Shown here: piece after piece, positions 1 through 55,675 of the stretch
Position numbering within the stretch: position 1 is the first letter of the stretch
How the letters are laid out: each line of letters begins with the position of its first letter
Source: a bacterium
GTDB lineage: Bacteria; Patescibacteriota; Patescibacteriia; UBA9570
Assembly (NCBI GenBank): GCA_030698395.1
Contig: JAUYKW010000018.1
Span: forward strand, 44,726 to 108,725
Reading direction: 5' to 3'
DNA: 64,000 bases
Program-made: the position numbers and the translations under genes
The notes under the pieces: generated by a model
Databases searched by the model: none
Told to the model about the DNA's origin: nothing
Seen by the model: the letters and a program-made list of their open reading frames with translations, nothing else

Positions 1-311
1 TCGGTTACAGTACCAACAGTGGAACGAGGATTATGAGTAGTTGTTTTTTGATCTATAGAGATAGCAGGAGATAGTCCATCGATTCTGTCTACATCTGGTT
101 TATCCATTAAACCTAAAAATTGACGCGCATATGCTGATAAACTTTCTACATATCTACGTTGTCCTTCAGCATAAATTGTATCGAAAGCCAATGAAGATTT
201 ACCAGAACCTGATAAACCTGTAATTACAACTAATTTGTTTCGCGGAATGTCTATTGAGACATTTTTTAAGTTATGAACTCTCGCGTTTTTTATTGAAATC
301 GCATCTTCCAT
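1..311 (-). CDS. uvrA: Excinuclease ABC subunit A (UvrA), N-terminal fragment; gene runs off the left window edge
   Basis: Absent from the ORF track because it is truncated. My reverse-complement translation from ATG 311-309 reads [67 protein letters not shown]. This is the canonical UvrA N-terminus with Walker [10 protein letters not shown]. Confidence 0.9.
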
Positions 312-400
312 GATTTAGAAAAACATGTTTAACTAATTTGAACTCGAGTAGTATATATGAATATTTAATCTACGTCAAGGTGGTATACTAAGAGGAGCTT

Positions 401-1681
401 ATGACTAGCAAGGTAAAAAAACAATTAGCAACATTACCACAAAAGCCAGGAATTTATTTGTTTAAAAATTCTATTGGTAATGTACTTTATGTAGGTAAAG
501 CGAAGTCTTTAAGTAGCCGAGTTCGATCATACTTTAGACAGCATAATGATTTGAATGAAGCTAAACAAATTATGGTACGGCAAATTGTTGATGTAGATTG
601 GATAGAAACAAAAACTGAATCTGATGCCATAATTTTAGAAGATAAGTTGATCAAAGATTATCAACCTAGATTTAATGTATTAGCAAAGGATGATAAAAGT
701 TTTTTGTATATTCATATAACGGATGAGAAGTTTCCTCAGGTACTAGCAGTACGGAGACCAAATCTTCGTAAAGCTGGAATATTTTATGGACCATATCCAT
801 TTGCTCGTAGTATTAGAGAAGTTCTAAAATTATTACATAACATTTTTCCATATCGGACTTGTAAAAATTTACCAAAAAAGGCTTGTTTAGAATATTACAT
901 TTATAAATGTAAAGCACCGTGCATTAATAAGATTTCAGAATCAGATTATCAAGCATTGATATATGATGTGTTAGCTTTTTTTGAAGGTAGAAATACTTTA
1001 GAGCTAGAATCAAGATTGGAAGAAATGATGCAGGTAGCTTCTGAAGATAAAAAGTTCGAAGATGCAGCAAAGTATCGTGATCAGTTAAAAGCAATAAAAA
1101 AGCTGCGTTCATTTCAAAAAACTCCACGTGAGTATTTAACTGATTATTACCAATTTAAGGCTATCGATCCTGATTTAGGCCTTCAACAGCTACAGGATGC
1201 TCTGGTTTTGCCAGCTCAGCCAAAGAGGGTAGAAGTTTATGATATTTCAAATATCCAAGGAACATATGCGGTTGGATCGATGGTGGTGTTTATTGATGGA
1301 TTGCCAGCTAGGAGTGAATATCGGAGATTTAAAATTAAAACTGTCCAAGGTGCAGATGATTATAAAAGTTTGCAAGAAGTGGTTAGACGGCGATTAAAAA
1401 GAGATTGGCCAAAACCAGATTTAGCTATCATGGATGGAGGTAAGGGGCAATTAAATGCTGTAAAACATTTTTGGCAAGATCATGACGTATCAGTTGTTGC
1501 TTTAGCCAAGAAAAGAGAAGAGCTATTTCTACCTGATCAAGCGATACCAATTACAATGGAAGCTGGTAGTCAGGGATTATTTCTAATTCAAAGAATGCGT
1601 GATGAAGCGCATCGTTTTGCCATCACTTATTATCGTAAATTGCACTCTAAATCAATGCGAGCTAATACCACTAAAAGCTAG
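401..1681 (+). CDS. uvrC: Excinuclease ABC subunit C (UvrC), short form (426 aa) apparently lacking the C-terminal (HhH)2 domain
   Basis: GIY-YIG N-terminus (GIYLFKN..VLYVGKAKSLSSRVRSYF). UVR motif (FEDAAKYRDQLKAIKKL). RNase H-like endonuclease region (VYDISNIQG..MDGGKGQLN..DEAHRFA). SD AGAGGAG at 391-397. Confidence 0.85.
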   Translation: MTSKVKKQLATLPQKPGIYLFKNSIGNVLYVGKAKSLSSRVRSYFRQHNDLNEAKQIMVRQIVDVDWIETKTESDAIILEDKLIKDYQPRFNVLAKDDKSFLYIHITDEKFPQVLAVRRPNLRKAGIFYGPYPFARSIREVLKLLHNIFPYRTCKNLPKKACLEYYIYKCKAPCINKISESDYQALIYDVLAFFEGRNTLELESRLEEMMQVASEDKKFEDAAKYRDQLKAIKKLRSFQKTPREYLTDYYQFKAIDPDLGLQQLQDALVLPAQPKRVEVYDISNIQGTYAVGSMVVFIDGLPARSEYRRFKIKTVQGADDYKSLQEVVRRRLKRDWPKPDLAIMDGGKGQLNAVKHFWQDHDVSVVALAKKREELFLPDQAIPITMEAGSQGLFLIQRMRDEAHRFAITYYRKLHSKSMRANTTKS

Positions 1682-3044
1682 GGGGAGTAGCTGGTGGAGT
1701 ACCACTTGGTGTTGATGGAATTATTTCCGGAGAATTTGTTGGAGTAGGAGGAATTGGACCTGATGGGGGAATTCCCTGAGTAGGTGCTTGTGGTTGTTGT
1801 GGCAGTGTAGGTTCTAATATTTCAGGGGTAGTAGGAGGATTATCTTGAGTTGGTGGTATAGGTTGTTGAATTGTAGCTGTTTCATCAGCTAGAGTATTTG
1901 CAATCGATGGTTCAGCTTCGAAGGCTGGTGCCATTTCTAAGGAAGCTAAGTCGGTTGCATTAATACCGGTTTGGATTAGTTCAGCATCTGAAATATGAAT
2001 TGCATCTATACCAATTCCAATAACTATGCCATTTTTATCTTGAGAACGATATATTTTTGCATCCGAAGCTAACGAGGCGTTTAATTCTGGTTGTTCTAGA
2101 GTTTTTAATTTGTCTGTAATTGATGAGGGCTCAGTGGTGAGTGTAGATTTAACAGCTGGAGATTCAGTTTTTTGCGGTAGCATGTGCAAGTCTTCTGTTG
2201 TGATGTCAGCATCAGTTACTTCTGTCGGAGAAAAATGTACAGATCCAGTAGCATGTTCAATTAGTAATCCCATTTCGGGTGTGGCATATACTTGAGCACC
2301 GGAAACGACAGTGTTTGCAACTGCCGGATTAGTATCGGAGAATTTTTTATTAAGAATTTCTATAATTTGCTCTGGCGTTAATGACTCTCGCTCTTTCTCG
2401 AGTGGAGTAACAGGCGATTCGGGTGCTTCTTCAATTGGTGAAATAGCTGGTGTGTTCGAAGTTGCTGGAGGAATGGAACCAGATTTATCAATGGTAGGAG
2501 TTGGTTGTTCATCTGTTGAGTTGACTTCAACAGGATGAGGTTTAATAAATTCTAAATCTTTAAAGATGTCTTCACTTTTTTCTGGATCGGTTTTAATTTG
2601 TGTTCGAGCTTCTTGAATTTTCTTTATTTGGTTATTTAGTTTACCCTCATTACTTTCCATGAAGCCGGTTTGTTCAATGAGCTTCTTTAGTTTATCAATT
2701 AAGCCGGTTTGTTCAGAATTAATACTTTCTAATTCAGAGATTAGTTTTTCTTCTGCACTATCCAATTTAGCCAAATAATCGACAGTCGTATCGGATGGTA
2801 CATCTTGAAGGGGTATTACTTGTGGTTTTAGAGATTCTCCAGGATTTTCTACTGGTGTCGATGTTGTCATGGGTTCAGGAGATGTTGTATCAGATTCTGA
2901 AGTAGGTGTTACTGGATTAGTTGTAGCTGAAGCAGTATTCACAAAAGGAAGTGTGATAGCTGGTCCAGACGTTGGAGTAGTTGAATTATCGTTGGGTGTA
3001 CCCATTGGTTGAGGAGGTACTGGATTTGAGGTTGATTCATTCAT
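1671..3044 (-). CDS. Hypothetical Pro/Thr/Ser-rich disordered protein with a central coiled-coil segment
   Basis: ORF-track frame 1671..3083. The 3083 start is TTG, so I prefer ATG at 3044 (MNESTSNPVPP). Low-complexity P/T/S termini flank the heptad-like segment LDSAEEKLISELESINSEQTGLIDKLKKLIEQ. No TM segment or catalytic motif seen. Confidence 0.6.
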   Translation of the reverse strand: MNESTSNPVPPQPMGTPNDNSTTPTSGPAITLPFVNTASATTNPVTPTSESDTTSPEPMTTSTPVENPGESLKPQVIPLQDVPSDTTVDYLAKLDSAEEKLISELESINSEQTGLIDKLKKLIEQTGFMESNEGKLNNQIKKIQEARTQIKTDPEKSEDIFKDLEFIKPHPVEVNSTDEQPTPTIDKSGSIPPATSNTPAISPIEEAPESPVTPLEKERESLTPEQIIEILNKKFSDTNPAVANTVVSGAQVYATPEMGLLIEHATGSVHFSPTEVTDADITTEDLHMLPQKTESPAVKSTLTTEPSSITDKLKTLEQPELNASLASDAKIYRSQDKNGIVIGIGIDAIHISDAELIQTGINATDLASLEMAPAFEAEPSIANTLADETATIQQPIPPTQDNPPTTPEILEPTLPQQPQAPTQGIPPSGPIPPTPTNSPEIIPSTPSGTPPATPPSF

Positions 3045-3104
3045 AATTAATATAATAATAGCATTTTTTTTAAGAAAAATCAAGTTGAAATATTTTAGAA
3101 ATAC

Positions 3105-3129
3105 AAAAAAGTGGAGCGTTAAACCCCAC
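3105..3129 (-). terminator. Candidate intrinsic terminator downstream of the 828-aa gene
   Basis: The minus strand reads GTGGGGTTTAACGCTCCAC followed by TTTTTT. The stem GTGG(G)G/C(T)CCAC spans 3111-3129 and the A-run at 3105-3110 is the T-tract on the minus strand. Confidence 0.55.
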
Positions 3130-3169
3130 TTTTATAATTTGATTTAGTTATTTATTATTTTTTAATGCT

Positions 3170-5656
3170 TTAAACTGTAGCATTTGCATCAGGATGTTTA
3201 AGAGTTGGCAGTTCAGCTGATATTCTATCAACATTCTTTTCAGCTTCAGCATCTCTTGAGGCCTGAGCTATATCTCCGATTTTTCCAAAAGACATATATT
3301 CAGTAGGAAGTTCATCGTTTGCTACTGATTGCAGACCCTCTAAGGCTGTTTGGATATTTAACTGACCTGCATCTGCTAATGCCTCGGATAGTTGTGGTAA
3401 ATTGATATATTCAACCCCTGCATAATTACCTGGTTCGCCAGATAATATGTAAACACCCTGAGCATTTTGTGCAGTTGTGCCTTCTGGTAATCGAATATCA
3501 ATTAATCTTCCTTGTGCTGGCAAATCTACAAGCATGCGACGCAGATTGTCATTACTAGTTGCGAACTTTTTAGCTAAAGCATTTTTAATTTCGCTTACAT
3601 TATGTTCTCTCGTTTTTACTGCTTCAGTTTTTTCCGTTCCAGCTTCTGCATACGCTTTTTCTTCTGCTGCTTCAATCTGTTCAGACATGCGGGAATACTT
3701 ATTGTCTACACTTGGTGTTTGAACTGTTTCATTTCTGGCCGCTATGGAATCTTGAACGGATTTTGGTAAAGGTATACCAGATAAAGTAGCTTCTAGTTCC
3801 CAGGCATTTTCCATATTAGCATTTGCTTCATTACTAGCTTTTGTGGCTATTGATATTTTTTTATCAAGCGTAGCTAAAGCTTTGCGTAGTGCTCTGCCTT
3901 TTAGCGTTTCTGATTTTTCTAAGTTTGCTCTTTCAACAATTAAGTTACTTTCTATTTGTGAAGCTTTAATAAATGTGTTGGCAGCTTCCATAGATGCTTG
4001 AGATGCTTGTTCTATTGCTGCATTATCGGCATCTTCATTTGTTCTTGATAGTGTTTCAACGAGTTCTTGAGAGCCAGCAACATTGGCTTCAGCTTCTTTA
4101 ATACCAGCCTGAGTATCACGACTAATTTTTTCAAATAACTTGGCTCTTCCTTTTTCATCTGTTTTTCCTGCAAGGAAACGTTGATTTACTTCCCCAATCT
4201 TATCTGATCGTGCATCAAGTAAAGTTTTTAACTTCGCTTGTGCTTGTTCTAAACTTTGTTGAGCAGGCTCTAGAGCAGCGGATTTTTCTGCAGGCGTCAT
4301 TTGTTCCATTGGACGCATTGGTGTAATCATATCTTTAGCCAAAGCAGGGCTGTTTATTGTTACATCATATACGCTTTTGTCTGTTGTGAATCTAAAATCT
4401 TGTTTTTGTCTTGGCGAAAGTTTCGATGCACCTAGTGCTGTTTGTTCATATTCATCACGGAGTGCTCTCTGTTCATGTATATCCGATGGTGTTAGAGGAT
4501 TCATTGCCTCTCCATATTTAACTGGAGCTAGACCTTCTCCTTGTTTAAAAAATTCTTGTTCAACATCGTCACCAGCAAGTTCGCTAATGGCTTTTTCTGT
4601 TTGTTTATCTTCTACTTTTTGAATTTCAACTCCAAAATCACCTAAGTTAATAACTAGGCCACGAGCTCCATCAATTCTGCCATCATATTCTTCATTTATT
4701 TTTGCAATTGCCCGTTTAATCTCAGCGTCATTTAGTTTATCTGTATCAATTTCTGCAATTGCGATTGCCTTAGCATCCATAATTTGTTTGAGTTCTTCTT
4801 GAGCATTAGCAAGAGCTTTGGTTTTTTCTGCAGGTGTCATTTCTGGTTTATTAAAGTCCATGCGAGTTCTTGCTCCAGTACCGGATTCACCAACTTTTAT
4901 ACTATACGGGCTAGCTTGGCTTGATGTTGCAGTCTCTGTTCGTTGTAACTTAATACCACCACTAGCTGTGCGCATATAGAATTCATCTGCCATGTCATTG
5001 ACAATACTGGTCATGCCTGAATCTTGCATATGAGACATCTTCCACATGCTTTGGAATAACTTATTTTGATGTTCTGGGTCAGTAGAGGTTGCAATAGCTT
5101 CTCTTAATTTTCCTACAGCTTCTTGAATACGTTGTAGTTTAGTTTCTTGTCTGGTAAATAAACCAACACGTTCTGCTAGGCGTGTTACTTGAGCTCTTAG
5201 TACACTACGTTGCTCATCCATGGCTTCGTGTCGATTGCTAACAATCGTTTCTAATATTTTTAAGCTGTTAACCATGTGCTCTGCGCTAAGTAATCCTTCT
5301 GGTTTTTCAGCTGTAGCTTCTGCATCTTCATTAGGCAAATCTGAATAATCAACATCACTCATAGGTGTTTGGTAATTTCTAGCTTCAGGAATTCTATTAT
5401 AAGTTACCACTCCTTGGTCTTCTGGTTCTCCAATGTGTTGATCTAAATCTAACATTATGTCATCACTTGGGTCGTGGGAAATGTTTGGTAGTTGAGTTCT
5501 ATCTATTGGTGTTGTGGGGGCATTGTTATCTATATTGTCATCACCTGTATCTTCAAAACGTTCTGCGCCAGATAAAGGTAAGCCAGCATTATTTTCTATT
5601 TTTTTGGCTGGTAGATCTCTTTTATTTATTGGGTCTGTTCTTTCTCTTGCAACCAT
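3170..5656 (-). CDS. Hypothetical 828-aa Glu/Ala/Lys-rich coiled-coil protein with internal repeats
   Basis: Long uninterrupted ORF with an acidic disordered N-terminus and extended heptad-like stretches. A repeated MTPAEK-x-ALxxAQ module occurs at aa 272-290 and 452-470. No enzymatic motif, TM segment or signal peptide recognised. Confidence 0.65.
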   Translation of the reverse strand: MVARERTDPINKRDLPAKKIENNAGLPLSGAERFEDTGDDNIDNNAPTTPIDRTQLPNISHDPSDDIMLDLDQHIGEPEDQGVVTYNRIPEARNYQTPMSDVDYSDLPNEDAEATAEKPEGLLSAEHMVNSLKILETIVSNRHEAMDEQRSVLRAQVTRLAERVGLFTRQETKLQRIQEAVGKLREAIATSTDPEHQNKLFQSMWKMSHMQDSGMTSIVNDMADEFYMRTASGGIKLQRTETATSSQASPYSIKVGESGTGARTRMDFNKPEMTPAEKTKALANAQEELKQIMDAKAIAIAEIDTDKLNDAEIKRAIAKINEEYDGRIDGARGLVINLGDFGVEIQKVEDKQTEKAISELAGDDVEQEFFKQGEGLAPVKYGEAMNPLTPSDIHEQRALRDEYEQTALGASKLSPRQKQDFRFTTDKSVYDVTINSPALAKDMITPMRPMEQMTPAEKSAALEPAQQSLEQAQAKLKTLLDARSDKIGEVNQRFLAGKTDEKGRAKLFEKISRDTQAGIKEAEANVAGSQELVETLSRTNEDADNAAIEQASQASMEAANTFIKASQIESNLIVERANLEKSETLKGRALRKALATLDKKISIATKASNEANANMENAWELEATLSGIPLPKSVQDSIAARNETVQTPSVDNKYSRMSEQIEAAEEKAYAEAGTEKTEAVKTREHNVSEIKNALAKKFATSNDNLRRMLVDLPAQGRLIDIRLPEGTTAQNAQGVYILSGEPGNYAGVEYINLPQLSEALADAGQLNIQTALEGLQSVANDELPTEYMSFGKIGDIAQASRDAEAEKNVDRISAELPTLKHPDANATV

Positions 5657-5714
5657 ATATTTGATAGTTAAAGAATAGTGATTTTATTTGAATTTTTTAT
5701 TTTTGATTAATATA

Positions 5715-5742
5715 AGTATAGCAGAAATTTGAATTTTGTCAA
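5715..5742 (-). promoter_or_regulatory. Sigma70-like promoter for the 828-aa gene
   Basis: Minus strand: TTGACA (5742-5737), 16-nt spacer, TATACT (5720-5715). It lies about 55-60 nt upstream of ATG 5656. Confidence 0.5.
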
Positions 5743-5835
5743 GTAAAATAAGGCTTTTTGTATTATTTTTTATGGATTTTAAATGCTTATTACTTATATC
5801 AATTATTAGTAACATATTTGTATGATGATTAGACC

Positions 5836-5864
5836 TTGACAAATTGTAATATATCGGTGATAAT
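5836..5864 (+). promoter_or_regulatory. Near-consensus sigma70 promoter at the left edge of the GC-rich island
   Basis: TTGACA (5836-5841), exactly 17 nt spacer, GATAAT (5859-5864). The context TTAGAC-N-TTGACAA matches the secG promoter context at 11255-11268 in 13 of 14 positions. Confidence 0.65.
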
Positions 5865-6018
5865 GTTCTGTCCTCTTCGTTATGGAGGGGTCTGGTTCTT
5901 ACGGCACTCTATGTCGTTGGCGCCACGCTCTTTTTTACTAGACCGGTTTAGGATAATGCCCTATTCCAAATCGTCGTGCTTTTTCGACAAATCCTTAACT
6001 CACCACAAGGGAGATAAC
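5865..6018 (+). promoter_or_regulatory. Long GC-rich 5' leader / possible cis-regulatory or small RNA element upstream of the island ORF
   Basis: About 150 nt lie between the -10 box and ATG 6019. Pairings seen: CCTC 5872-5875 with GAGG 5885-5888, GGTCT 5889-5893 with AGACC 5940-5944, and GTCG 5973-5976 with CGAC 5985-5988. Palindrome TGGCGCCA 5918-5925 is followed by T6 at 5931-5936. Confidence 0.4.
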
Positions 6019-6987
6019 ATGACTGCGCAAGTCATTCCTTTCCCTAGCGGTGGAAGCCGGTCAGGGAAACAAGATATCTATGCTGAGATTCGGCCAAGCC
6101 AATCTCGGCTACAACAACATCGTCAAACCACAATGCAGGTAATTACGGGGACTGAGTGGACGGAACAATACCTCCACCCCCAGAACGTACGCGTGGAGCT
6201 GCCCCAACGTGGGGATGCAGAGCTCTTCGTGACAGTACACGTTCACATCCCGGCAATTCGTGGCCGGCTCCAGATTGGAGCGCAGGCGCTTGAACCGGGT
6301 AGACGACCCAGTGGTTGGGTGATGGCACAGGTAGAGGTGAGCGATCTTCGGCACCACCTCGTGTATGGACCAAGATACAAGAAGGTTCAGTATACGGTGC
6401 GACATGCCTTGGATGGCACTCACATGACCTTCCGGGTCAAGGTGGATCAATTCCCCTTCGGTCAGGCACAGGTGGTGCTTTGGTGGGTAGGCAAGAACGC
6501 CAACACCGATGGCATTTTCGTGCAGGCCAGGGAGATACCAGCTCTGACCTTGTCGACGAACGACCCTACAAGAACGATCACGCCTACGGGAGCGGTCGAT
6601 CGAACGGGAAAGGTCGTCGATAGCAACGTTGTAGTCGAGACCCACAGGTACGCATCCGGGTTTTTAACCGACTTCATCATCAACCTCCCGCACATGGATG
6701 GACAACAACATCCTGGTGTACCGCGGGTTCTCCCACGGCTGGACAAGGTGAACGTGCAAAAGGTGAACGTGCAAGACGGCACGTTGACGGTGATTGACCA
6801 ACTCACTGGCTCTGCCAAGGTGTACGACCATATCGTCTTTACGTGCGAGCGTTCAGACGAGGCTACACACCTCCGGTTCAGAGTCGAGGGGATGGACGCA
6901 ATTCCTGTCGGGTCCGAAGAGCTGGTCCTAGAATGGAGATCGACGTCTCTGGGTGGTTACTACATCCAGGTGATCGTTGATCGCTGA
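6019..6987 (+). CDS. Orphan 322-aa protein of the GC-rich island; beta-rich, with two tandem homologous halves; function unknown
   Basis: ATG 6019 is preceded by SD AAGGGAGA (6007-6014). The frame stays open across the whole island. Other-frame ORFs here are GC-rich shadow ORFs. A repeated motif is visible: THMTFRVKVDQFPFGQAQVVLWWVG versus THLRFRVEGMDAIPVGSEELVLEWRS. Confidence 0.7.
   Translation: MTAQVIPFPSGGSRSGKQDIYAEIRPSQSRLQQHRQTTMQVITGTEWTEQYLHPQNVRVELPQRGDAELFVTVHVHIPAIRGRLQIGAQALEPGRRPSGWVMAQVEVSDLRHHLVYGPRYKKVQYTVRHALDGTHMTFRVKVDQFPFGQAQVVLWWVGKNANTDGIFVQAREIPALTLSTNDPTRTITPTGAVDRTGKVVDSNVVVETHRYASGFLTDFIINLPHMDGQQHPGVPRVLPRLDKVNVQKVNVQDGTLTVIDQLTGSAKVYDHIVFTCERSDEATHLRFRVEGMDAIPVGSEELVLEWRSTSLGGYYIQVIVDR
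6745..6774 (+). repeat. Perfect 15-bp tandem duplication inside the island ORF
   Basis: AAGGTGAACGTGCAA at 6745-6759 is repeated exactly at 6760-6774. It is in frame and gives KVNVQKVNVQ. Confidence 0.95.
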
Positions 6988-6999
6988 AATGTCCAGCAT

Positions 7000-7077
7000 G
7001 GAAGTGAGAGGTACTGCGTACAACGCAGGACTTGAAACGTCGTCGCACATCAACTGCTGACTACCTCTCCATCTTCC
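7000..7077 (+). other. Nested hairpin element immediately 3' of the island ORF
   Basis: Outer stem: GGAAG 7000-7004 with CTTCC 7073-7077, and GAGAGGTA 7006-7013 with TACCTCTC 7062-7069. Inner hairpin: CTGCGT 7014-7019, loop ACA, ACGCAG 7023-7028. No T-tract follows. Confidence 0.6.
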
Positions 7078-7166
7078 CCTTAATCTTATAAATTATGTTT
7101 TAGACTTTTTTGTTTGTAAGTAACACAAAAGTTGAAAGCAGAATTTGTTTCTTTTAGAATCGCTAA

Positions 7167-8093
7167 CTAAGTTATTTTTAAGAGCATTACGAATTGCTCG
7201 AATGCAGAAAAATATTTCTTCGGACGTAATGTTGTATTTTGGTATTCCAACATTACTTCTATCATATAATCATCATGTGTAAACAGAACTACTCGTGATG
7301 GAGAGCTGGTTGTTGTTTCTAACATTAATCCATTTCGTTGGGAGATTTCTGGAATTGATTCAAGAATGTTAGCATTAATATATTCTGGTCTGTATTTTTT
7401 AATCCAATCAAGTGTTGTAACAGTGTCATTTTCTGCTAGTGATATTGTAAGGCTAGCACTTTCTCGATCCTTTGTTTGTAATTTTATTTTGTCTGGACCG
7501 ACTGTATTTACTTCAAAATAGTCTTCATACTCAATCGATAACTCTCCAGCATTAGTATTGAATTGTCTTTCTTGCATTGCTACCGGGTGAGTTATTTTTC
7601 CGTAGGATATATTTTCATCATATGCAGACACCATATTAATATGAGAGCTATATACAACAACTAATACCATAAAACCAATTACAACTAACGCGCAAGCGCT
7701 AAAGAAATGTTCGCCAAAACTTAACTTATTAATTTTAGATTTTTCTTCAATAGTTATTACAGGTGTTTCATTGTCACTCTCAATAGATTCAATGGGTGCA
7801 ACAGAATCGATACTTTCTATCGGTGAAATTGGTTCTAATTCTAATTTTTCAACTATGGACTGTTTTTCTGGAACTGGTTTTGATTTCTTTTGTACTTTTT
7901 TCTTAGCAACAGGTTTCTTAACAACAGTCTTTTTTGTAGTAATTTTTTTAGGTGCTTTTTTAACGGCAATGCTTTTCTTCTTTTTATTAGCTGTAACCTT
8001 TGTTACTTTAGTCGGGGCTTTGGCTTTATTCTCTTTTGCCTTGCTGACTTTAGTATTTTTTGGTTTGCTTATTTTTTTTGTTATTTTTGCCAT
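7167..8093 (-). CDS. Hypothetical bitopic membrane protein with a polycationic Lys-rich N-terminal tail
   Basis: By my count, 31 of the first 77 residues are Lys (AKKxP/KKxV repeats, histone-H1-like). This is followed by a PIESI(D/E)S repeat, one TM helix (FFSACALVVIGFMVLVVVYSS) and a ~160-aa C-terminal domain. Confidence 0.6.
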   Translation of the reverse strand: MAKITKKISKPKNTKVSKAKENKAKAPTKVTKVTANKKKKSIAVKKAPKKITTKKTVVKKPVAKKKVQKKSKPVPEKQSIVEKLELEPISPIESIDSVAPIESIESDNETPVITIEEKSKINKLSFGEHFFSACALVVIGFMVLVVVYSSHINMVSAYDENISYGKITHPVAMQERQFNTNAGELSIEYEDYFEVNTVGPDKIKLQTKDRESASLTISLAENDTVTTLDWIKKYRPEYINANILESIPEISQRNGLMLETTTSSPSRVVLFTHDDYMIEVMLEYQNTTLRPKKYFSAFEQFVMLLKIT

Positions 8094-8138
8094 GGTTTAA
8101 TATTATATTCCTCCAAATAAAAATATATTATAGCGAAG

Positions 8139-10208
8139 CTACATTTTTTCTACAAGTTTTTCTGGAATATCTGCAATAAATCTAGAAGCACTTACAATTT
8201 TTGTAGTACCAAACACAGTTCGCTGATTAGCATAAATAAGATATGCTCGTTCACGGGCGCGGGTTAATGCCACATAGCATAGACGACGCTCTTCCTCCAT
8301 TTCTAGTGGTTGGAATAAACTTCTGGCATGTGGAAATAGCCCTTCTTCCATACCTGCAACGAATACGTTATTGAATTCTAAACCTTTAGCAGCGTGTACA
8401 GTCATCATAGTGACTGCATTGGTGCTTTCGTCAACATCATCTTGATCTGAAATGAGAGCAACTTCTTCTAAGAAAGAGTTGATGCCAGCTTGACCAGGTA
8501 AATGATCGAATTTTTTGGTAACTGATTTTAATTCTTCAATATTTTCTATGCGACGTTGATCTTCTGATAGCTTTGGTGAGAATTGATCAGTGTAGCCGGT
8601 TTTGTCTGCAATCATAGTTAGTAAATCAGACGGAGTTTTTTCTGGAGCTGCCGCAATAATTTCTTGCATGGTTTTTTGAAAATTTAAAAAAGCTAGCCTT
8701 TGCTTTTCTCTTAAGGGTGGTAATTTGGTTTCAGATAATTCAACAAAGGTTGCTTCATTATCTCTGCAGGCTTGTTCTATTTTTAGCCAGCTATTTCTGC
8801 CTAATGATCTGGCAGGTATATTATAAATTCGTTCTAAACTTACCCAGTCAGCCGGATTAGCTACTACTTTCATATAAGCGATGAAATCCTTAATTTCTTT
8901 GCGCTCGTAAAATTTAATACCACCGATTAAACGATAAGGGATATTGTATTTCATGAAAGTTTCTTCTAGAGCACGTGATTGAGCATTGGTTCTATATAAA
9001 ATCACATACTCAGCAAGGTTGATATCTCGTTTTTGCCTTTTAATAACTTCTTCTAGAGCTAGATCCACTTTGTAATCTTTGAAAGTTTGACTTTTCATAA
9101 TTTTATCCAAAATGGACTCATCGGCTTCTGCTATTTGAATAGGGGTATATGAAATATCGTCATTGTCTTTTGGTTCGTTATTGTCCGAAAAATCAAATAT
9201 CTCTCTGATAATGAATTCTCCTTCGAGTTGTTCGTTTTCTACCTCTTTTACGACAATTTTATGTCCCCTGTCATTATCCGTCCAAAGAACCTTTTCCTTT
9301 TGAGAGGTATTATATTTAATAACTTCGTTGGCTGCTTCTAAAATACGTTTGGTGGATCGATAATTTTGTTCTAGTAGCACAACAACTGCATCTGGGTAAT
9401 CATCTTCGAAGTCTAGAATATTTTGTAAATTAGCTCCTCGCCATGAGTAGATGGACTGAAAGTCATCTCCTACTACACAGATATTATGATGCTTATCAGC
9501 TAATTGGTGGACTAATGTATATTGAGCATGATTAGTATCTTGATACTCATCAACCAAGATGTATTTAAATGCTGCTTGGTATTTTTTTAATACTTCTGGA
9601 TGTTCCTGAAAAAGTTTTACTGTTAATTGAATCAAATCATCAAAATCAAGTGCATTATTTCGTTGTAATTCCCCTTGATATTTACTATAAACATGAGCAG
9701 CAGTTTTTTCGATAGTTTCACTTGCCTCAGCTTCGTATGCACTAACATCCTTTAAATCATTTTTTGCACTCGATATCATGTATTTAATTATTTTAGGTGC
9801 GATTACTTTAGTATCGTATCCTAAATCTTTCATACATTTTTTAATCAAGGAATCACTATCCGATGCATCGTAGATGACATAATTAGTATCGTATCCTAAG
9901 ATTTCAATTTCTCGTCTTAAAATTTGTACACAAATTGAATGGAATGTACCTACTACCGGTAATTTTTTTACTTTGCCTTTAAGTAACTTTTGTAAGCGAT
10001 CTTTAATTTCTCCAGCAGCTTTGTTTGTGAATGTTACTGCTAAAATATTCCATGGCTTAACATCTTCCGTTGCAATAATGTAAGCAATCCGATGAATTAA
10101 GGTTTTGGTTTTTCCAGAACCAGCTCCAGCTAAAATTAAAAGGGGTCCATTAGTTTGTTGGACCGCTTTGCGTTGTCTATCGTTTAGAGGGGCTAGTAAT
10201 ATATGCAT
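8139..10208 (-). CDS. pcrA: ATP-dependent DNA helicase PcrA/UvrD (SF1)
   Basis: Motifs LAGAGSGKT, VDEYQDTN, QNYRST and VHAAKGLEF. The track start at 10247 is TTG. ATG at 10208 gives the typical N-terminus MHILLAPLNDRQRKAV. Confidence 0.9.
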   Translation of the reverse strand: MHILLAPLNDRQRKAVQQTNGPLLILAGAGSGKTKTLIHRIAYIIATEDVKPWNILAVTFTNKAAGEIKDRLQKLLKGKVKKLPVVGTFHSICVQILRREIEILGYDTNYVIYDASDSDSLIKKCMKDLGYDTKVIAPKIIKYMISSAKNDLKDVSAYEAEASETIEKTAAHVYSKYQGELQRNNALDFDDLIQLTVKLFQEHPEVLKKYQAAFKYILVDEYQDTNHAQYTLVHQLADKHHNICVVGDDFQSIYSWRGANLQNILDFEDDYPDAVVVLLEQNYRSTKRILEAANEVIKYNTSQKEKVLWTDNDRGHKIVVKEVENEQLEGEFIIREIFDFSDNNEPKDNDDISYTPIQIAEADESILDKIMKSQTFKDYKVDLALEEVIKRQKRDINLAEYVILYRTNAQSRALEETFMKYNIPYRLIGGIKFYERKEIKDFIAYMKVVANPADWVSLERIYNIPARSLGRNSWLKIEQACRDNEATFVELSETKLPPLREKQRLAFLNFQKTMQEIIAAAPEKTPSDLLTMIADKTGYTDQFSPKLSEDQRRIENIEELKSVTKKFDHLPGQAGINSFLEEVALISDQDDVDESTNAVTMMTVHAAKGLEFNNVFVAGMEEGLFPHARSLFQPLEMEEERRLCYVALTRARERAYLIYANQRTVFGTTKIVSASRFIADIPEKLVEKM

Positions 10209-15315: not shown

Positions 15316-16296
15316 ATGAAAAAACGTATATTATCAGGAGTACAACCAACTGGAGCATTACATTTAGGTAATTATATTGGTGCTTTAAGACAATGGGTTG
15401 ATCTACAGCATGAAACAGATGCATATTTTTGTATCGTTGATTATCATGCTATTACCGTGAAACAGGATACTCAGGAATTGTATGATAATATTCATTCATT
15501 AGCAGCCATGTATGTGGCAGTAGGTTTAGATCCATCAAAAGTTACTTTATTCAAGCAATCTGATGTGTCGGCTCATACTGAGTTGGCATGGATTTTGAAT
15601 AATTTCACTCACATGGGAGAGCTACAGCGTATGACGCAGTATAAGGATAAAGCAAAGGGAAACGGTAAACAAACTGTTGGCCTGTTTACATATCCAGTAT
15701 TAATGGCAGCAGATATTTTGTTGTACCAACCGCACATGGTTCCAGTGGGTGAAGATCAAAAGCAACATGTTGAATTGACTAGGAATATAGCTCAGAGATT
15801 TAATAATAGATTTAGCGAAACTTTTCGTGTACCAGATGTAATGCATCCAAAAGACGGAGCAAGAATTATGAGTTTGGATGATCCTAATACCAAGATGAGC
15901 AAAACGGGATCTTCTCAGTGGGGATACATTGCTCTAAGTGATGCTCCAGATGTAGTGATGAAAAAAATTAAGAAGGCAGTAACTGATTCAGGTAGTACGA
16001 TAGAAGCATCTGCTGATAAACCAGCATTAACAAATTTATTAGTTATATATTCAGCAGTTTCCGGAAAAACAGTTGGTGAGTTAGAAGAATTGTATCATGG
16101 TCAGGGTTATGGAAAATTTAAGAAAGAATTAGGTGAAGCTATAGTTACTTGGTTAGAGCCGATTCAAGAACGATATCACGAGTTAATACAGAATTATGAT
16201 GAGTTACAGGCAATTCTTAAACAAGGTCAGGAACGAGCCTCAGTTGTAGCGCAGGTCACCTTGGATGATGTAAAAACAAAGATCGGAGTTATTTAG
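15316..16296 (+). CDS. trpS: Tryptophan--tRNA ligase
   Basis: Class I signatures GVQPTGALHLGNY and KMSKT. The size (326 aa) is typical of TrpRS. Confidence 0.9.
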   Translation: MKKRILSGVQPTGALHLGNYIGALRQWVDLQHETDAYFCIVDYHAITVKQDTQELYDNIHSLAAMYVAVGLDPSKVTLFKQSDVSAHTELAWILNNFTHMGELQRMTQYKDKAKGNGKQTVGLFTYPVLMAADILLYQPHMVPVGEDQKQHVELTRNIAQRFNNRFSETFRVPDVMHPKDGARIMSLDDPNTKMSKTGSSQWGYIALSDAPDVVMKKIKKAVTDSGSTIEASADKPALTNLLVIYSAVSGKTVGELEELYHGQGYGKFKKELGEAIVTWLEPIQERYHELIQNYDELQAILKQGQERASVVAQVTLDDVKTKIGVI

Positions 16297-35496: not shown

Positions 35497-36615
35497 TTAG
35501 CCTTGATAGGTTAGAAATAGTATTTTACGTACTACTCGTGCTTCTGGTCGGGAGTAAAAAATTGGTTCATGAAATTGTGAGTAGTTTAGTTTTGTATAAT
35601 ATTTTGCCAGCGGTAATGTCAAAGTATCATCATGTCTGCGCCATGCTGGTACAGCCAATACTATTCTGGCTTGAGGAGCAAGAATATCTGTAAGTGCTAG
35701 AAATGTTTCTTCATATAACTTGATCATTTGGCGATGAACTTTATCTGTTTTCTTTGGTCGCAGCGGTCCCAGATATCCTTCAGCGACAACTCTATTTATT
35801 GACTCTTTTCCTAAAATATTTTTAATATCCTTAACATCACTAACATGTAATGGAATTTTTGGTAGGTTTAACCATGCCAGATTATCTGTTGTGTCTAAAA
35901 TACTTTTCTTCGAAATGTCGGAACCTATTACATTTTTGTAGCCTGATAATAGAGCTTCCTGCAATATAGTGCCTGATCCGCAAAAGGGATCTAGAATAGT
36001 ATCATCTAAATTTGGTTGTGAAATATTTATCATCATTCTAGCGATTTTTGGTGGGAGCATTCCAGAATGATGATCTCTTTGTGGTCTGCCGTAATCTCGT
36101 TTTGAAAAATCTCTGAATGGTTGTACTGAGGTGGTGCGAGCTAATAAAATACTCTTATTATAAAGCACTAAACAAAAATCTGTTTGGTTATCTAACAAAT
36201 GTTCTTTTTGTACAATTACAGAAGACAGCGCTGGTTCTTTACTACTAACATATCTAATTGATTTACCGGTAGCTCTGACTTCTTTTTTCCAGTCTATCCC
36301 TATGCGTTCTAATTTTTTTGCGTAATGCTTTACTATATTATCGGTCATGGCATTTTCTCCTGCATAAACACTAAAACCAAACCTAATTTTATTTTCTCCT
36401 GTTAAGTATTTTTTAAAAATATCCAAGCCCGCTAAATCACGGGATATTTCATCAACGACTGTACATATTTTTATGGTACCTCCTAAGATATTAATGTCTA
36501 CATCATTAGAAAGTTCTGCTATATTTCCGCCAGACCATTTTTTCAAAACATTAAGTGATTCTAATTCTAATGCTGAGAGATCTGGTGTAGTACCAAGAAT
36601 TGCTATTTGTTTCAT
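35497..36615 (-). CDS. Putative RNA (guanine-N2/adenine-N6 type) methyltransferase, UPF0020/Trm11-like
   Basis: Motif ILDPFCGSGTILQEA with an N-terminal THUMP-like region. ATG at 36615 forms an ATGA overlap with the epimerase stop. The track start at 36636 is rejected. Confidence 0.55.
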   Translation of the reverse strand: MKQIAILGTTPDLSALELESLNVLKKWSGGNIAELSNDVDINILGGTIKICTVVDEISRDLAGLDIFKKYLTGENKIRFGFSVYAGENAMTDNIVKHYAKKLERIGIDWKKEVRATGKSIRYVSSKEPALSSVIVQKEHLLDNQTDFCLVLYNKSILLARTTSVQPFRDFSKRDYGRPQRDHHSGMLPPKIARMMINISQPNLDDTILDPFCGSGTILQEALLSGYKNVIGSDISKKSILDTTDNLAWLNLPKIPLHVSDVKDIKNILGKESINRVVAEGYLGPLRPKKTDKVHRQMIKLYEETFLALTDILAPQARIVLAVPAWRRHDDTLTLPLAKYYTKLNYSQFHEPIFYSRPEARVVRKILFLTYQG

Positions 36616-37550
36616 ATACGATTGTTTTGATACCATGAGGCAAATTTATTTAAACCTTCTTCTAGACTTGTAGTTGGTTTAAAGTTTAAAAGTTTTTTTG
36701 CTTTATCTATATTAGCGTATGTTTGATGAACGTCACCTGGTTGCATGCCAACCTGTTTAATGATTGCAGTTTTACCAGTAACTTTTTCTACAGTAGCAAT
36801 GAAATCATTTAACGAGATTGGTTCATTATTTCCTAGGTTGATAATTTCATAAGGAAATGGATTTTCTACGGCAGCTTTTACACCCTGTACTATGTCTGCT
36901 ATGTAAGTATAATCTCTACTAGTATTTCCATCACCAAATTTTATAATTTCCTTTTCTTTTAGAATTTTTTCTGTAAATAGATATGGAGCCATGTCTGGCC
37001 TACCACGTTCACCATATACTGTGAAGAATCGTAGGATGGTAGTTTGAATGTTGTGCAAATGATGATTGGTATAAAGCATTAGTTCAGCTGCTCGTTTTGT
37101 AGCTGCATATGGAGAAATCGGCTCATTAACATTTACATCTTCTGAAAAAGGCACTGTCGTAGTATCTCCGTAAACCGCGGAAGTTGATCCGAAGATAAAA
37201 CGATTTACATTATATTCCATCGCTAACTTTGCTAAATTTGTTGTGCCTAGTAAATTTACTTTCGCATATAAATCTGGTTCTAGCAAAGATGATCGGACAC
37301 CTGCACGAGCTGCCAAATGAATTATCAGATCAAATTTATGATCTTTAAATATTTCAGTTAGAGCTGTAGAATCTGTAACATCAACTTGATAAAATTTTTC
37401 TGGTCGTAATAATGCTAAATTTTCTTTTTTGAATTCTGGATTATAGTAATCATTAATATTATCAATAATTACAACGTTATGATCAGCTTGTAGAGCTTCT
37501 ACTATATGAGAGCCAATGAAACCAGCGCCTCCGGTTACTAATATATTCAT
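36612..37550 (-). CDS. NAD-dependent sugar-nucleotide epimerase, UDP-glucuronate 4-epimerase-like
   Basis: GGAGFIGSH, catalytic YAATKRAAE, and RFFTVYGERGRPDMA, which is typical of UDP-GlcA 4-epimerases. Confidence 0.6.
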   Translation of the reverse strand: MNILVTGGAGFIGSHIVEALQADHNVVIIDNINDYYNPEFKKENLALLRPEKFYQVDVTDSTALTEIFKDHKFDLIIHLAARAGVRSSLLEPDLYAKVNLLGTTNLAKLAMEYNVNRFIFGSTSAVYGDTTTVPFSEDVNVNEPISPYAATKRAAELMLYTNHHLHNIQTTILRFFTVYGERGRPDMAPYLFTEKILKEKEIIKFGDGNTSRDYTYIADIVQGVKAAVENPFPYEIINLGNNEPISLNDFIATVEKVTGKTAIIKQVGMQPGDVHQTYANIDKAKKLLNFKPTTSLEEGLNKFASWYQNNRI

Positions 37551-51582: not shown

Positions 51583-52479
51583 TTATTGACCTGCCTTATA
51601 TATAGCGTATCGATCAGCTAACCAATTTTGGGGAGATTGTTTTTTTGGTTGGAGTTTAGCTAGCTCGGATAAGATAGATTCAATATTATATCCAAGGAGG
51701 GATAATTTTTCTGAGTCTAATGAACGTAGATATTTTTTTGCGTACTGTATACGTAAATTTGTATTGAATGTAGTTTTCCATTTTTCTAATGACTTATTCT
51801 GTACCTGTTTTTCTTTAGCTATATAGGGATCTCCCATGGTGCCATGAAGTTTTTCTTTTTGAATATTTTGGATCATATTTGAATTGAATGGTATTTCTAG
51901 ATAGTTACAAATCTTCTCTGTAACTTCGCTTGATTTTTCTACTAACTCTTCATATTTAATTAATATACTTTTTTCTTTCAGCAATTCATATCCATCACTC
52001 AGGAGATGTGGACCTTCATACAGATCTGTATTTGAAGGTTTTACATTTAATTTACCAAAGTTCCATGTTTCAATCACTGAAGCTAATGTTGCCAAAGGAT
52101 TTCTGCCTAAAAAAATAAATTTTGCCTCAGGAAATAATTTTGCTATTTCTGGAATAATAAAATAGTAACGAGGAGTTTTATCAAGAAAATATTTTTCATT
52201 GTCACAAGCTGAACTATATATGTCAGTGACAAATTCTTTTAATGACTTATCATAAGAAAACATTTTTTTTGGAAGTTCTGAAAAAAAATCTTGTAGCGCT
52301 TGACGACAAACTTCCTTATCGTAATCTACTGTTAGATCATTTTGTTTTTTTGGATATAGGAGTGGTAACAATATCCATGGTTCAGATACAGAACAAATTT
52401 CTGGATGAGACATTAATATTTTCTGCAGTAAAGTTGAACCAGAACGAGGTGTGGAAAAGAGGAAGATTAAATTATCCAT
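51583..52479 (-). CDS. Sulfotransferase (Sulfotransfer_1/3-like)
   Basis: 5'-PSB loop STPRSGSTLLQKIL and 3'-PB-like FLGRNPLATLAS. 298 aa. Confidence 0.65.
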   Translation of the reverse strand: MDNLIFLFSTPRSGSTLLQKILMSHPEICSVSEPWILLPLLYPKKQNDLTVDYDKEVCRQALQDFFSELPKKMFSYDKSLKEFVTDIYSSACDNEKYFLDKTPRYYFIIPEIAKLFPEAKFIFLGRNPLATLASVIETWNFGKLNVKPSNTDLYEGPHLLSDGYELLKEKSILIKYEELVEKSSEVTEKICNYLEIPFNSNMIQNIQKEKLHGTMGDPYIAKEKQVQNKSLEKWKTTFNTNLRIQYAKKYLRSLDSEKLSLLGYNIESILSELAKLQPKKQSPQNWLADRYAIYKAGQ

Positions 52480-53491
52480 TTTTTCTAATTAATTTGCTAT
52501 AAGCTAGAGCTAACATATCTTGAAGTTGAGTTTTTTTACAAGAAATTATTCTTCGACGTAAATCATTTGGTATTACTTGCTGAATATCATCTTGCTCATT
52601 TAATTCTTGTATTTCAGCAACATAATCTTTATTTTTTTCGTAGAGTATATCAGCGTATTCTGTTCTATCAGATAGCTTTGGATTATTATGTTCCTCAGGC
52701 CACTTTAAAAGTTGTTCTTGCAATTTAAAATAAAGTTTAACTTTTTCACTAGTTCGTAAACCATTAGTCCCAATTGGATGCCATGGGTGTGCCGTGTATG
52801 TGTCTGTAAGTACAGCTCCTTTGCTGTTAGCGGCCATTTCCAATCTGATACTGACATCTTCTCCAATTTTGGATAGAGAAGTACTCCAAAGAGGATTAGT
52901 GTCATATCCTTCTATTATATCCCAATACTTTCTTGCCGCGGATATCATTGGTCCAAAATTTCGGCGGGGTGGAAATAATTCAGGTTGTCTATATTTTGTT
53001 GGGCAAGTTGCTAGCACAGATGCTAGATCGTTGTTAGCATTTTGCCATTCCTTAAAGGATGCCCCAGCTGGGTATTGAGCCATTCTACGAAACGCATTAA
53101 ATACTTTGTACTTTCCTTGTTGATGATGCTTTGTTAGCACAGTTAGAAAGTCTTTAGGTAGAAGTTGATCTCCATCCATTACTGAAATTATATCGCCTTG
53201 AGATGCCGCTATGCCAGCATTATTACATTTTGATAAGTGATAAGCTTCAGTATTAACATTCTCGTCCAAATAAATTATCTTGATATTCATTTGGTCTTTA
53301 ACTTCTTTATGGCGATCGAACAGCGATTTTAATCCCTTTTTGTGATTATACTTATCGGCAAATTCACGGCTTCTTTGTTCAACATAAATAAGTTCAAAAT
53401 TATTCCTAGGGAAATCTTGATTTAGTAGACCATTAATTAGATGAAAAAAATTACGATAACTCGAGTCCCAACTAATGATAGAGTGTAACAT
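52472..53491 (-). CDS. GT2-like glycosyltransferase (divergent)
   Basis: GT-A-like N-terminus (FELIYVEQRS) and DxD candidate VMDGDQ. 8-nt overlap with the downstream sulfotransferase gene. Confidence 0.45.
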   Translation of the reverse strand: MLHSIISWDSSYRNFFHLINGLLNQDFPRNNFELIYVEQRSREFADKYNHKKGLKSLFDRHKEVKDQMNIKIIYLDENVNTEAYHLSKCNNAGIAASQGDIISVMDGDQLLPKDFLTVLTKHHQQGKYKVFNAFRRMAQYPAGASFKEWQNANNDLASVLATCPTKYRQPELFPPRRNFGPMISAARKYWDIIEGYDTNPLWSTSLSKIGEDVSIRLEMAANSKGAVLTDTYTAHPWHPIGTNGLRTSEKVKLYFKLQEQLLKWPEEHNNPKLSDRTEYADILYEKNKDYVAEIQELNEQDDIQQVIPNDLRRRIISCKKTQLQDMLALAYSKLIRKNG

Positions 53492-53495
53492 ATAG

Positions 53496-54467
53496 TTATT
53501 TTATATCAGTCAACCAAGCTCTTACAAGTTTGATTTCGTCGTTGGATACAAATCCATTTTTATGAAGAGCAGTGTAAACAATTTCTAAGTTTTTCAATAA
53601 ATCTTTACCTAGTTTTATATTTTGAAGTAATTCAATGATTGGTTTAGTGTTTTGATATACTTCAACTTCATCAGCAAAATCTTTCATTAAGTTGTGAGCA
53701 TTTCTTTCTTGGTAAACAGTTGCCTCAGTAAAACCTAAATGCATGCCATGTAGCCACATAATATGTTGTGCCAGATAACCTCTTAGAATATCAGTAAATC
53801 TAAAACTAACAGTTGCGGGGAGATATAATAATGGAAATGCTTTTTTTTGCCAGAAAGTATTTTGCGAATTAAACGGACAGTAACACTTTTTTGGTAAATG
53901 AATACTTTTTTTTCGATCGAATTTGGTAGTGTCGTTAAAGACTAAGCGATAAATGGCATCAACATCTGGATCTGTATCAGCTAAACCTTGCCATGCTCCA
54001 ATACTAGTTAATTTAGAATGTTGTTTTAACTTGCTCTTATTTTTTGTTTGAATGAGGTCTAACGGGTATCCTCGTGGCCAAATTAATTTCTTTGAAAAGT
54101 AATTGTATACATTATAATATTTGTCTTTTGTCTCTATACTTCTTTTGCTAGTAAAATCTGGACACTTCCAATGTTTGTATGGCAGATTGTCGTCATCTGT
54201 ATCATAGATAATATCTGCTCCTTGACGCATTGCATAAATATACCCGATGTTTTTTCTAGTATAGTGGTTATAAGGACTGTAGCGAACAAATTCGTAGCCT
54301 AGTTTTTTTTGATCTTGAACTGAAAGGAAGGTTAAGTTTTTTGAACTTTTAATTTGTGGAGTTTTTTTATCTCCAACAAGAACAACGTGCCAATCTGGAA
54401 TTTTTTCAAAAGCTTTTACCGCTTTAGTTCTGTCGTTAATGCTAGTTATGACTATGAATTTTTTCAT
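53496..54467 (-). CDS. Putative glycosyltransferase, DUF288/STELLO-like
   Basis: The N-terminal pattern KKFIVITSINDRT..WHVVLVGDKKTP and a DTDDDN motif resemble that family. The call is from memory only. Confidence 0.35.
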   Translation of the reverse strand: MKKFIVITSINDRTKAVKAFEKIPDWHVVLVGDKKTPQIKSSKNLTFLSVQDQKKLGYEFVRYSPYNHYTRKNIGYIYAMRQGADIIYDTDDDNLPYKHWKCPDFTSKRSIETKDKYYNVYNYFSKKLIWPRGYPLDLIQTKNKSKLKQHSKLTSIGAWQGLADTDPDVDAIYRLVFNDTTKFDRKKSIHLPKKCYCPFNSQNTFWQKKAFPLLYLPATVSFRFTDILRGYLAQHIMWLHGMHLGFTEATVYQERNAHNLMKDFADEVEVYQNTKPIIELLQNIKLGKDLLKNLEIVYTALHKNGFVSNDEIKLVRAWLTDIK

Positions 54468-55675
54468 GATAGTTGCGTAATTTTATAATCAGTTGGAGGA
54501 CAAGATCCTAAGACATCTCTGCGCGACACAATAAAAGGATCAATTACACTAGTTGGTTGCATTTCAAAGAATAATAATTGTGGACGGTAAAAAATTCCTG
54601 TATCAAGCAGTCCCAGCCCTAAGCTAATGCTGTAATTTCCGGGTGGAAGATTTGTATCTTCAGCAGAAATTTCAAGTTTATGTTTTCCTTTAGGAATGGC
54701 ATCTATTTTTGCTGTAACTGTCATGATGCGTGCTAACTGACTGTTAAATATTTGGATACCAACTCTAATATTATTGAGTTCTTTATCGGTGTTATTAGTT
54801 ACTAGCAACTCTGTAATCAGAGGCTTGCTGTACTGCATTTGGGACAATCTAATTTGTTCAATAGTAAAGTTTTTGATTTTTGTATCAAACGGACCAGTTC
54901 CTGATTCTTGAGAATTTGTCAGGCGTAGATATTCTTGAACAGCTTTGTCTGTATCTGCGATCGTTACAATTTTTCCTTGATTCAGCACAACGCATGATTT
55001 ACATAAGCTTTGAATTGCTCCCATATTGTGGCTAACAAAAATGATAGTGCGACCATCTTCTTTTGTTACTTCATCCATTTTGCCAAGGCACTTTTTTTGA
55101 AACTGGGTATCACCAACAGCTAGTACTTCATCTACTAAAAGAATCTCTGGTTCTAGATGGGCAGCTACAGCAAATGCTAAACGCACGCGCATCCCACTAG
55201 AATATCTTTTTACTGGGGTGTCTAAGAATTTTTCTACTTCTGCGAATTCAACAATTTCATCAAACTTTTTTGAGATTTCTCTTTTTGTCATGCCCAATAC
55301 AGCTCCATTTAGAAATACATTTTCTCGGCCAGTTAATTCTGGATGAAATCCAGTGCCAACTTCCAATAAGCTAGCAACTCTGCCACGTAAAGTTATTTTA
55401 CCAGTGGTTGGTGATGTGATGCGGGACAATACTTTTAATAGGGTACTTTTACCAGCTCCGTTACTACCGATTAATCCTATTACTTCACCTTTCTCTATAG
55501 AAAAATTTATATCTTTAAGTGCCCAGAATGTTTCTCGATGGGATTCTTTGTTTGTGAACCATTTTTTTGGATTTAAAGATTTAGCAATTACATCACGTAA
55601 AGCTACATAGGGTTCCATTTCCCCTAGTTGATATTGTTTTGAAATATTTTCAGCTAGAATTACAGGTTTGGACAT
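54464..55675 (-). CDS. wzt: Polysaccharide ABC exporter ATP-binding protein (Wzt/TagH type) with a C-terminal extension
   Basis: GSNGAGKSTLLK, SSGMRVRLAFA and LLVDEVLAVGD. About 150 extra C-terminal residues are beta-rich. Confidence 0.8.
   Translation of the reverse strand: MSKPVILAENISKQYQLGEMEPYVALRDVIAKSLNPKKWFTNKESHRETFWALKDINFSIEKGEVIGLIGSNGAGKSTLLKVLSRITSPTTGKITLRGRVASLLEVGTGFHPELTGRENVFLNGAVLGMTKREISKKFDEIVEFAEVEKFLDTPVKRYSSGMRVRLAFAVAAHLEPEILLVDEVLAVGDTQFQKKCLGKMDEVTKEDGRTIIFVSHNMGAIQSLCKSCVVLNQGKIVTIADTDKAVQEYLRLTNSQESGTGPFDTKIKNFTIEQIRLSQMQYSKPLITELLVTNNTDKELNNIRVGIQIFNSQLARIMTVTAKIDAIPKGKHKLEISAEDTNLPPGNYSISLGLGLLDTGIFYRPQLLFFEMQPTSVIDPFIVSRRDVLGSCPPTDYKITQLS

Follow-up and report, generated by a model that had tools for sequence, protein, structure and literature searches.

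Phage morons are defined by a deviant GC content and by the possession of their own promoter and terminator (PMC3594210). The locus described here is a compositional island of an uncultivated, AT-rich bacterium, located at positions 5855 to 7079 of a 64,000-nucleotide stretch of DNA (the window, i.e., the whole stretch that was analyzed), and it resembles phage morons in several respects. A single ORF is preceded by its own predicted promoter and followed by a structured 3' end, and the GC content is sharply deviant (GC3 of 0.62 vs 0.19 to 0.31 in the other ORFs), with edges at 5855 and 7080. The island has unrelated genes on either side, and no housekeeping role is obvious for its product. 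In contrast to morons, however, the island lies outside any recognizable prophage, its neighbors being uvrC, pcrA, and genes specific to the lineage that match no phage family, and its 3' element is a four-way junction and not a simple intrinsic terminator. Because the defining prophage context is absent, we do not file the island as a moron and refer to it only as moron-like.

With integron gene cassettes, the island shares the organization as a ~1.2-kb unit with a single gene (often an orphan), a foreign composition, and a folded 3' element. In contrast to these cassettes, it comes without an integrase, an array, or attC core sites (GTTRRRY / RYYYAAC), and it is equipped with a long leader and a predicted promoter of its own, both of which are usually missing from cassettes. 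Both attC motifs are absent on either strand in the region 6960-7170, as is GTTRRRY in 5780-5920. With these core motifs missing, no recombinase among the window ORFs scanned, and no repeat of the 3' element in the window, the integron cassette reading was rejected.

Two further comparisons concern the protein product. One half of it, as modeled, would form a nine-strand sandwich of ~125 residues, which, along with the tandem arrangement of the two halves, is reminiscent of Ig-like (Greek-key, E-set) domains. Jelly-roll and double jelly-roll capsid proteins likewise have a flexible arm at the N terminus and then two beta-rich halves of comparable size, but the island protein has no jelly-roll proteins among its top structural matches, no accompanying viral genes, and no viral homologues in IMG/VR, INPHARED, PHROGs, or BFVD.

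The island gene is real and intact, has predicted expression signals, is internally repeated, and has no relatives in the databases searched. The reading that we favor, with a probability of about 50%, is that the island is a recently acquired, horizontally transferred, moron-like single-gene unit that encodes a soluble tandem beta-sandwich binding protein.

Gene structure and predicted expression signals

The island and its immediate surroundings include the following features:

1671-3083, minus strand: flanking gene, 470 aa
3170-5656, minus strand: flanking gene, 828 aa
5836-5864, plus strand: predicted sigma-70-type promoter, TTGACA-17-GATAAT, 11/12 matches in a consensus scan
5855-7079, no strand: compositional island, from likelihood change-points at 5855 and 7080 and GC profiles
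5870-6018, plus strand: leader of ~148 nt, GC 0.47, folded against shuffles
6008-6013, plus strand: Shine-Dalgarno sequence AGGGAG, with a 5-nt gap to the start codon ATG 6019
6019-6987, plus strand: coding sequence of the orphan protein, from the ORF list, coding signature, start-codon analysis, and protein properties
7000-7077, no strand: four-way junction directly after the stop codon, folded as RNA and as DNA on both strands
7167-8093, minus strand: flanking gene, 308 aa

The ORF at 6019-6987 is a genuine coding sequence because of its codon-position bias and the distribution of stop codons, and also because the product contains an internal repeat that exists at the protein level and is specific to this frame (see below). 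The GC contents at the three codon positions are 0.64, 0.41, and 0.62, and first positions are rich in G (0.35) and poor in T (0.12). Across the island, there are 2 stops in the ORF frame versus 9 to 23 in the other five frames, and the ORF frame contains 378 open codons. The product is a protein of 322 aa and 36.2 kDa with a pI of 7.95, in which inspection revealed no signal peptide and no transmembrane helix. Three ORFs of 102 to 178 aa overlap the gene in other frames or on the other strand (6109-6645 and 6462-6818 on the minus strand and 6315-6623 on the plus strand); they show neither self-similarity nor coding support and are of the kind expected in stop-poor GC-rich sequence.

Three start calls for this gene are in conflict, giving products of 221, 374, and 322 aa. 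No stop codon interrupts the reading frame between 5836 and 6019, and the coding signature, seen in the codon-position composition, is clear from 6019 onward. The in-frame stretch 5863-6018 has a noncoding look, with T at 0.42 and G at 0.15 of the first codon positions. We take 6019 as the start because AGGGAG is located 5 nt upstream and because the preceding stretch resembles noncoding DNA. Starts at TTG 5836 or ATG 5863 were rejected, as the codon-position composition speaks against them and the resulting ORF would overlap the promoter. The 374-aa product comes from the Logan gene table, presumably with ATG 5863 as the start, whereas the NCBI call is the 221-aa version starting at M102, which probably truncates the protein by 101 residues. 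The practical gain from this comparison is a corrected annotation of the island gene.

The predicted promoter has its -35 hexamer in AT-rich, host-like DNA and its -10 element at the island edge. Since the GC change-point at 5855 falls inside the spacer, this promoter may be a hybrid of host and inserted DNA. The transcript is predicted to start near 5870-5872. A second promoter, also with 11/12 matches, is found on the minus strand at 5715-5742, back-to-back with the first one at a distance of ~95 bp; it faces the 828-aa host gene, while the plus-strand promoter faces the island gene.

The leader contains a 5'-proximal hairpin (5872-5890), followed by a second hairpin and a run of six U residues. 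Its structure is modest, with folding z-scores of -1.4 for the whole leader and -2.0 for the first hairpin, and no known RNA family was identified in it, the Rfam matches being at chance level. The layout of a type III toxin-antitoxin system was considered and dropped, as the leader has no tandem repeat array.

Within the island, strong structure is confined to the 3'-terminal 80 nt, which contain the four-way junction; elsewhere, the sliding z-scores are mostly between 0 and -2. In this junction, closing stems of 5 bp and 8 bp enclose three hairpins with loops of 3, 7, and 7 nt, all 25 pairs are of the Watson-Crick type, and there are no linker nucleotides. The z-scores for its stability are -4.4 (plus strand) and -3.6 (minus strand) for RNA and -4.2 on both strands for DNA. 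It does not include a canonical hairpin-plus-U-tract terminator and does not match any Rfam family. A tRNA or tmRNA reading of 7000-7077 was rejected because ARAGORN finds nothing in the window and the junction has no linker nucleotides. This element probably serves as the transcript 3' end or as a stabilizer. The entire 64 kb is devoid of tRNA genes and of Rfam families that reach the gathering threshold. The promoter, long leader, Shine-Dalgarno sequence, ORF, and structured 3' end would together make the island a self-contained transcription unit.

The encoded protein

A sequence-only reading of this DNA had noted that the protein has no recognizable motif, and the database searches bear this out: no motif, catalytic or otherwise, was found in Pfam, NCBIfam, PHROGs, PADLOC, or PDB sequences. 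The Pfam scan returned a single line, Lipid_bd, with an E value of 0.076, which is not good enough to pass the threshold, and no sequence family of the Ig-like clan from Pfam or NCBIfam passes the threshold either. A word-indexed search of 5.8 billion clusters and an exhaustive phmmer search of 1.84 billion representatives each retrieved only the protein itself. A two-row profile of the internal repeat had no match among the 5.8 billion clusters or in the PDB sequences, and there was no match in IMG/VR (searched with the protein and with the alignment of its halves), in the JGI metagenomes, or, using tblastn, in phage (INPHARED) and plasmid records. Thus, the profile searches against Pfam, PDB, and metagenomic clusters that had been proposed as a check on that reading produced no family that explains the protein. 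That the host lineage is barely sampled can be seen from the 828-aa neighbor, which is of native composition and is likewise an orphan with no relative in the 5.8 billion clusters, and from the fact that the best relatives of PcrA among the GTDB representatives and JGI metagenomes are only ~45% identical. Orphan status alone is, accordingly, unremarkable.

The coding sequence contains the following internal repeats:

6376-6525, plus strand: repeat copy 1, residues 120-169 (YKKVQYTVRHALDGTHMTFRVKVDQFPFGQAQVVLWWVGKNANTDGIFVQ), from local alignment, shuffles, and codon-position test
6823-6972, plus strand: repeat copy 2, residues 269-318 (YDHIVFTCERSDEATHLRFRVEGMDAIPVGSEELVLEWRSTSLGGYYIQ), from local alignment, shuffles, and codon-position test
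6740-6769, plus strand: 15-nt in-frame tandem duplication, KVNVQ KVNVQ, 87% identical, from the repeat search

Residues 120-169 and 269-318 align with a local BLOSUM62 score of 73, compared to 29 ± 5 for shuffled sequences (z ~9, 0 of 500 shuffles). The two peptides quoted in the sequence-only reading as related ends of the two halves are both present, at residues 125-169 and 272-317, and on their own score 67, versus 18 ± 3.6 for shuffles (0 of 2,000), so that the self-alignment proposed there as a check shows significant similarity of these segments. The self-similarity score is 73 in the ORF frame and 27 to 38 in the other five frames. Codon identity between the copies at positions 1, 2, and 3 is 0.45, 0.55, and 0.33, identical residues are often encoded by different codons, and there is no repeat at the DNA level between the two copies. 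Owing to these codon-position identities, the differing codons, the frame specificity of the similarity, and the lack of a DNA-level repeat, the internal repeat is best read as an old duplication, the copies of which have since evolved as protein.

For the N-terminal parts of the halves, the alignment scores are no better than chance (z-scores of -0.7 in local and -1.0 in semiglobal alignment). The best of their 130 ungapped registers is 146, and the register of the repeat is 149-150, a proximity that would arise by coincidence in ~7% of cases; this is the sole hint of a duplication of the whole half. The description of the protein as an internally duplicated two-domain one is therefore supported for the last ~50 residues of the halves, which are related, but finds no support in their N-terminal parts. 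The short KVNVQ KVNVQ duplication, located in the second half, looks like the result of recent replication slippage.

Structure prediction for the full-length protein from the single sequence yielded an AlphaFold model consisting entirely of strands, with a pLDDT of 36, which makes it unusable. A model of the half that contains repeat copy 2 (residues 196-322 aligned with residues 50-172) is borderline, with a pLDDT of 58.5 and a pTM of 0.54; it has nine strands and no helix of at least 4 residues. The protein is thus probably all-beta as modeled, in line with the earlier description of it as beta-rich, although the confidence of the models that consist of strands is low to borderline. In Foldseek searches of the half model against PDB and BFVD, the best E values were 4e-3 to 5e-3, with TM scores of ~0.4. 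Every one of the top matches is an Ig-like sandwich and, in many cases, a binding module; among them are PD-L2, the IL-18-binding protein, myomesin, adaptin ears, and accessory domains of glycosidases. These matches hint at an Ig-like sandwich fold for the halves. No jelly-roll capsid protein is among the top matches from PDB and BFVD, and the idea of a capsid-like fold, which was among the options in the sequence-only reading, gains no support from the fold matches of the half model. There are also no viral genes nearby. The options would thus tentatively narrow to an Ig-like binder in preference to a jelly-roll capsid protein. Disorder of the N-terminal ~40 to 55 residues, suggested in the same reading, is consistent with their composition; the tail (residues 1-55) is mildly basic, with a pI of 8.3.

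These observations allow us to outline how the product might work. It would be a soluble, nonenzymatic, and probably cytoplasmic protein, in which a flexible N-terminal tail of ~55 residues precedes two beta-rich halves of ~120 to 130 residues each. The halves would most likely be Ig-like beta-sandwiches that descend from an old tandem duplication, with their similarity surviving only in the last ~50 residues of each. Such a protein can be expected to act by binding a partner, either protein or nucleic acid, and not by catalysis. If it resembles phage morons and other genes that are imported singly, it would most plausibly take part in a conflict between the host and a virus or another mobile element, with a role in exclusion, blocking, or sensing, for example. 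The Ig-like fold, the binding function, and the conflict-related role are what we infer from the models and from these parallels.

Composition, neighborhood, and origin of the island

The island is foreign in composition. Its GC content of ~0.48 to 0.59 contrasts with 0.18 and 0.23 in the intergenic DNA flanking it on the left and on the right, respectively, whereas the mean for the 64-kb window is 0.35 (standard deviation of 0.043 in 300-nt windows). Windows of 300 nt with GC above 0.46 are found only across 5832-7153, which makes this region the sole outlier in the 64 kb. The GC3 range of 0.19 to 0.31 given above was obtained from the 49 other ORFs with 150 codons or more. The codon usage of the island gene is badly mismatched to the host: its codon adaptation, referenced to the host, is 0.39, compared to 0.64 to 0.75 for 34 host ORFs. 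The untranslated regions of the island are GC rich as well (0.47 and 0.52), and since they and the synonymous sites share the same composition, selection on the amino acid sequence cannot be the cause of the deviant GC content. An SD-like 4-mer is found upstream of 4 of the 49 host ORFs, with the starts taken crudely as the first ATG. Because GC3, codon adaptation, the GC content of the untranslated regions, and the use of a Shine-Dalgarno sequence all contrast with the host, the island appears to be a recent import with little amelioration, and a recent horizontal transfer is what its composition points to.

Several host genes have a TATAAT-like box 5 to 10 nt before the ATG, e.g., those at 15316, 52472-53491 (minus strand), 54464-55675 (minus strand), and 59847, which suggests that host mRNAs are leaderless or have very short leaders.

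The island is intergenic, situated between divergent and convergent host genes, in a neighborhood that comprises uvrC and pcrA with three lineage-specific ORFs between them. The flanking proteins of 470, 828, and 308 aa are Pro/Thr-rich, coiled-coil-like, or Lys-rich with one transmembrane segment. None of the three has a significant match in Pfam or PHROGs, and those of 828 and 308 aa have no match in PADLOC. The window ORFs that were scanned include no integrase, transposase, recombinase, or phage gene, the rest being housekeeping genes. Direct and inverted repeats at the island edges are limited to 6- and 7-mers, and a shared 6-mer is expected in ~90% of shuffles; a transposon with terminal inverted repeats and target site duplications was discarded, as the edge repeats are at chance level. 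There is no second copy of any part of the island in the window or in viral contigs. On the right flank, ATTATGTT by eye resembles the XerD arm of a dif-like XerCD site, but this candidate was also discarded because the palindromic partner arm of ATTATGTT is missing, again by eye.

PcrA-anchored scans of the GTDB representatives and JGI metagenomes yielded no match above ~45% identity, and neither an empty site nor an island-free relative was detected. Exact-protein look-ups found one further contig, which is identical to the window: an independent Logan assembly of SRR13727534, possibly built from the reads that also gave the MAG, shows 100% identity to window positions 1-9659, with both junctions included. 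The locus is therefore not an assembler-specific artifact.

Other explanations of the island have to be weighed against horizontal acquisition of a moron-like unit. The strongest of them, although unlikely in our judgment, is a stranded viral structural gene (for a capsid, tail, or decoration protein), either as the relic of a virus or from a virus of a GC-richer host. A flexible, mildly basic N-terminal tail followed by all-beta domains would fit such a protein, orphan status is typical of viral genes, and Ig-like domains are common on phage virions. However, there is no match in PHROGs, BFVD, phage genomes, or viral contigs, the fold matches are Ig-like and not jelly-roll, the window contains no other viral gene (the neighbors having no significant PHROG matches), and virion modules are not organized as a lone gene with its own promoter. 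Another explanation would have the gene as the cargo of an undescribed mobile cassette without a recombinase of its own, for which the 3' four-way junction would be the insertion site, recognized in trans. The junction is positioned exactly at the right edge of the island and is stable as single-stranded DNA on both strands (z of -4.2), and the edges are sharp with a single gene inside. The absence of a second copy in the window or viral contigs, of attC core sites, of terminal inverted repeats or target site duplications above chance, and of a recombinase among the window genes scanned makes this quite improbable, the more so as a 3' stem structure is equally expected of a plain transcript end. 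We would give similarly long odds to the broader speculation that the protein founds a family not seen before, perhaps with a new beta fold, and that the unit is a minimal recombinase-less cassette that uses its 3' DNA junction, or else is the sole surviving gene of a virus group that infects this lineage.

The remaining explanations question the transfer or the gene itself. An assembly chimera, in which 1.2 kb from another organism was joined into the contig, would account for the extreme contrast in composition. Chimeras do occur in metagenome assemblies, and the two assemblies of this locus may go back to the same reads. Still, two different assemblers follow an identical path through both junctions, the presence of the same host contig on both sides would call for two independent mis-joins, and the insert is a complete gene unit that fits an intergenic gap exactly, with a promoter in front of it and its neighbors undisrupted, so that a chimera appears very improbable. 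Even less can be said for a native gene that was inherited vertically and keeps its unusual composition through selection: in a lineage sampled so poorly, native genes are orphans, too, but the GC3 value stands far apart from those of the other ORFs, both untranslated regions deviate, and the Shine-Dalgarno usage is unlike that of the host. Structured noncoding RNAs are the classic GC-rich islands of AT-rich genomes, and the GC-rich stretch runs from close to where transcription is predicted to begin up to a structured 3' element, as it would for a large RNA in which the ORF is incidental. Yet the codon-position composition is of the coding type, the 378 codons are open, the internal repeat shows up in the protein of the ORF frame and nowhere else, the folding z-scores are unremarkable across the body, and there is no Rfam family. 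A noncoding RNA, the least probable of these explanations, was rejected on these grounds.

If the favored reading, a recently acquired moron-like unit, is correct, the island would be a clean and very recent case of an intact foreign gene in a small AT-rich genome, one that keeps donor-type signals (a long leader and a Shine-Dalgarno sequence) in a host that mostly does without the latter. Because these donor-type signals are kept, the island could be useful as a marker of DNA uptake and of the donor. The protein would then represent a new sequence family of tandem beta-sandwich domains. In its general nature, the island is a further horizontally acquired orphan gene, a familiar class, and the understanding of the known systems is unchanged by it.

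Elsewhere in the window, and unrelated to the island, the ORF at 35497-36636 (minus strand) contains DNA-methylase and UPF0020 methyltransferase domains and may encode a methyltransferase that is either an orphan or a component of a restriction-modification system.
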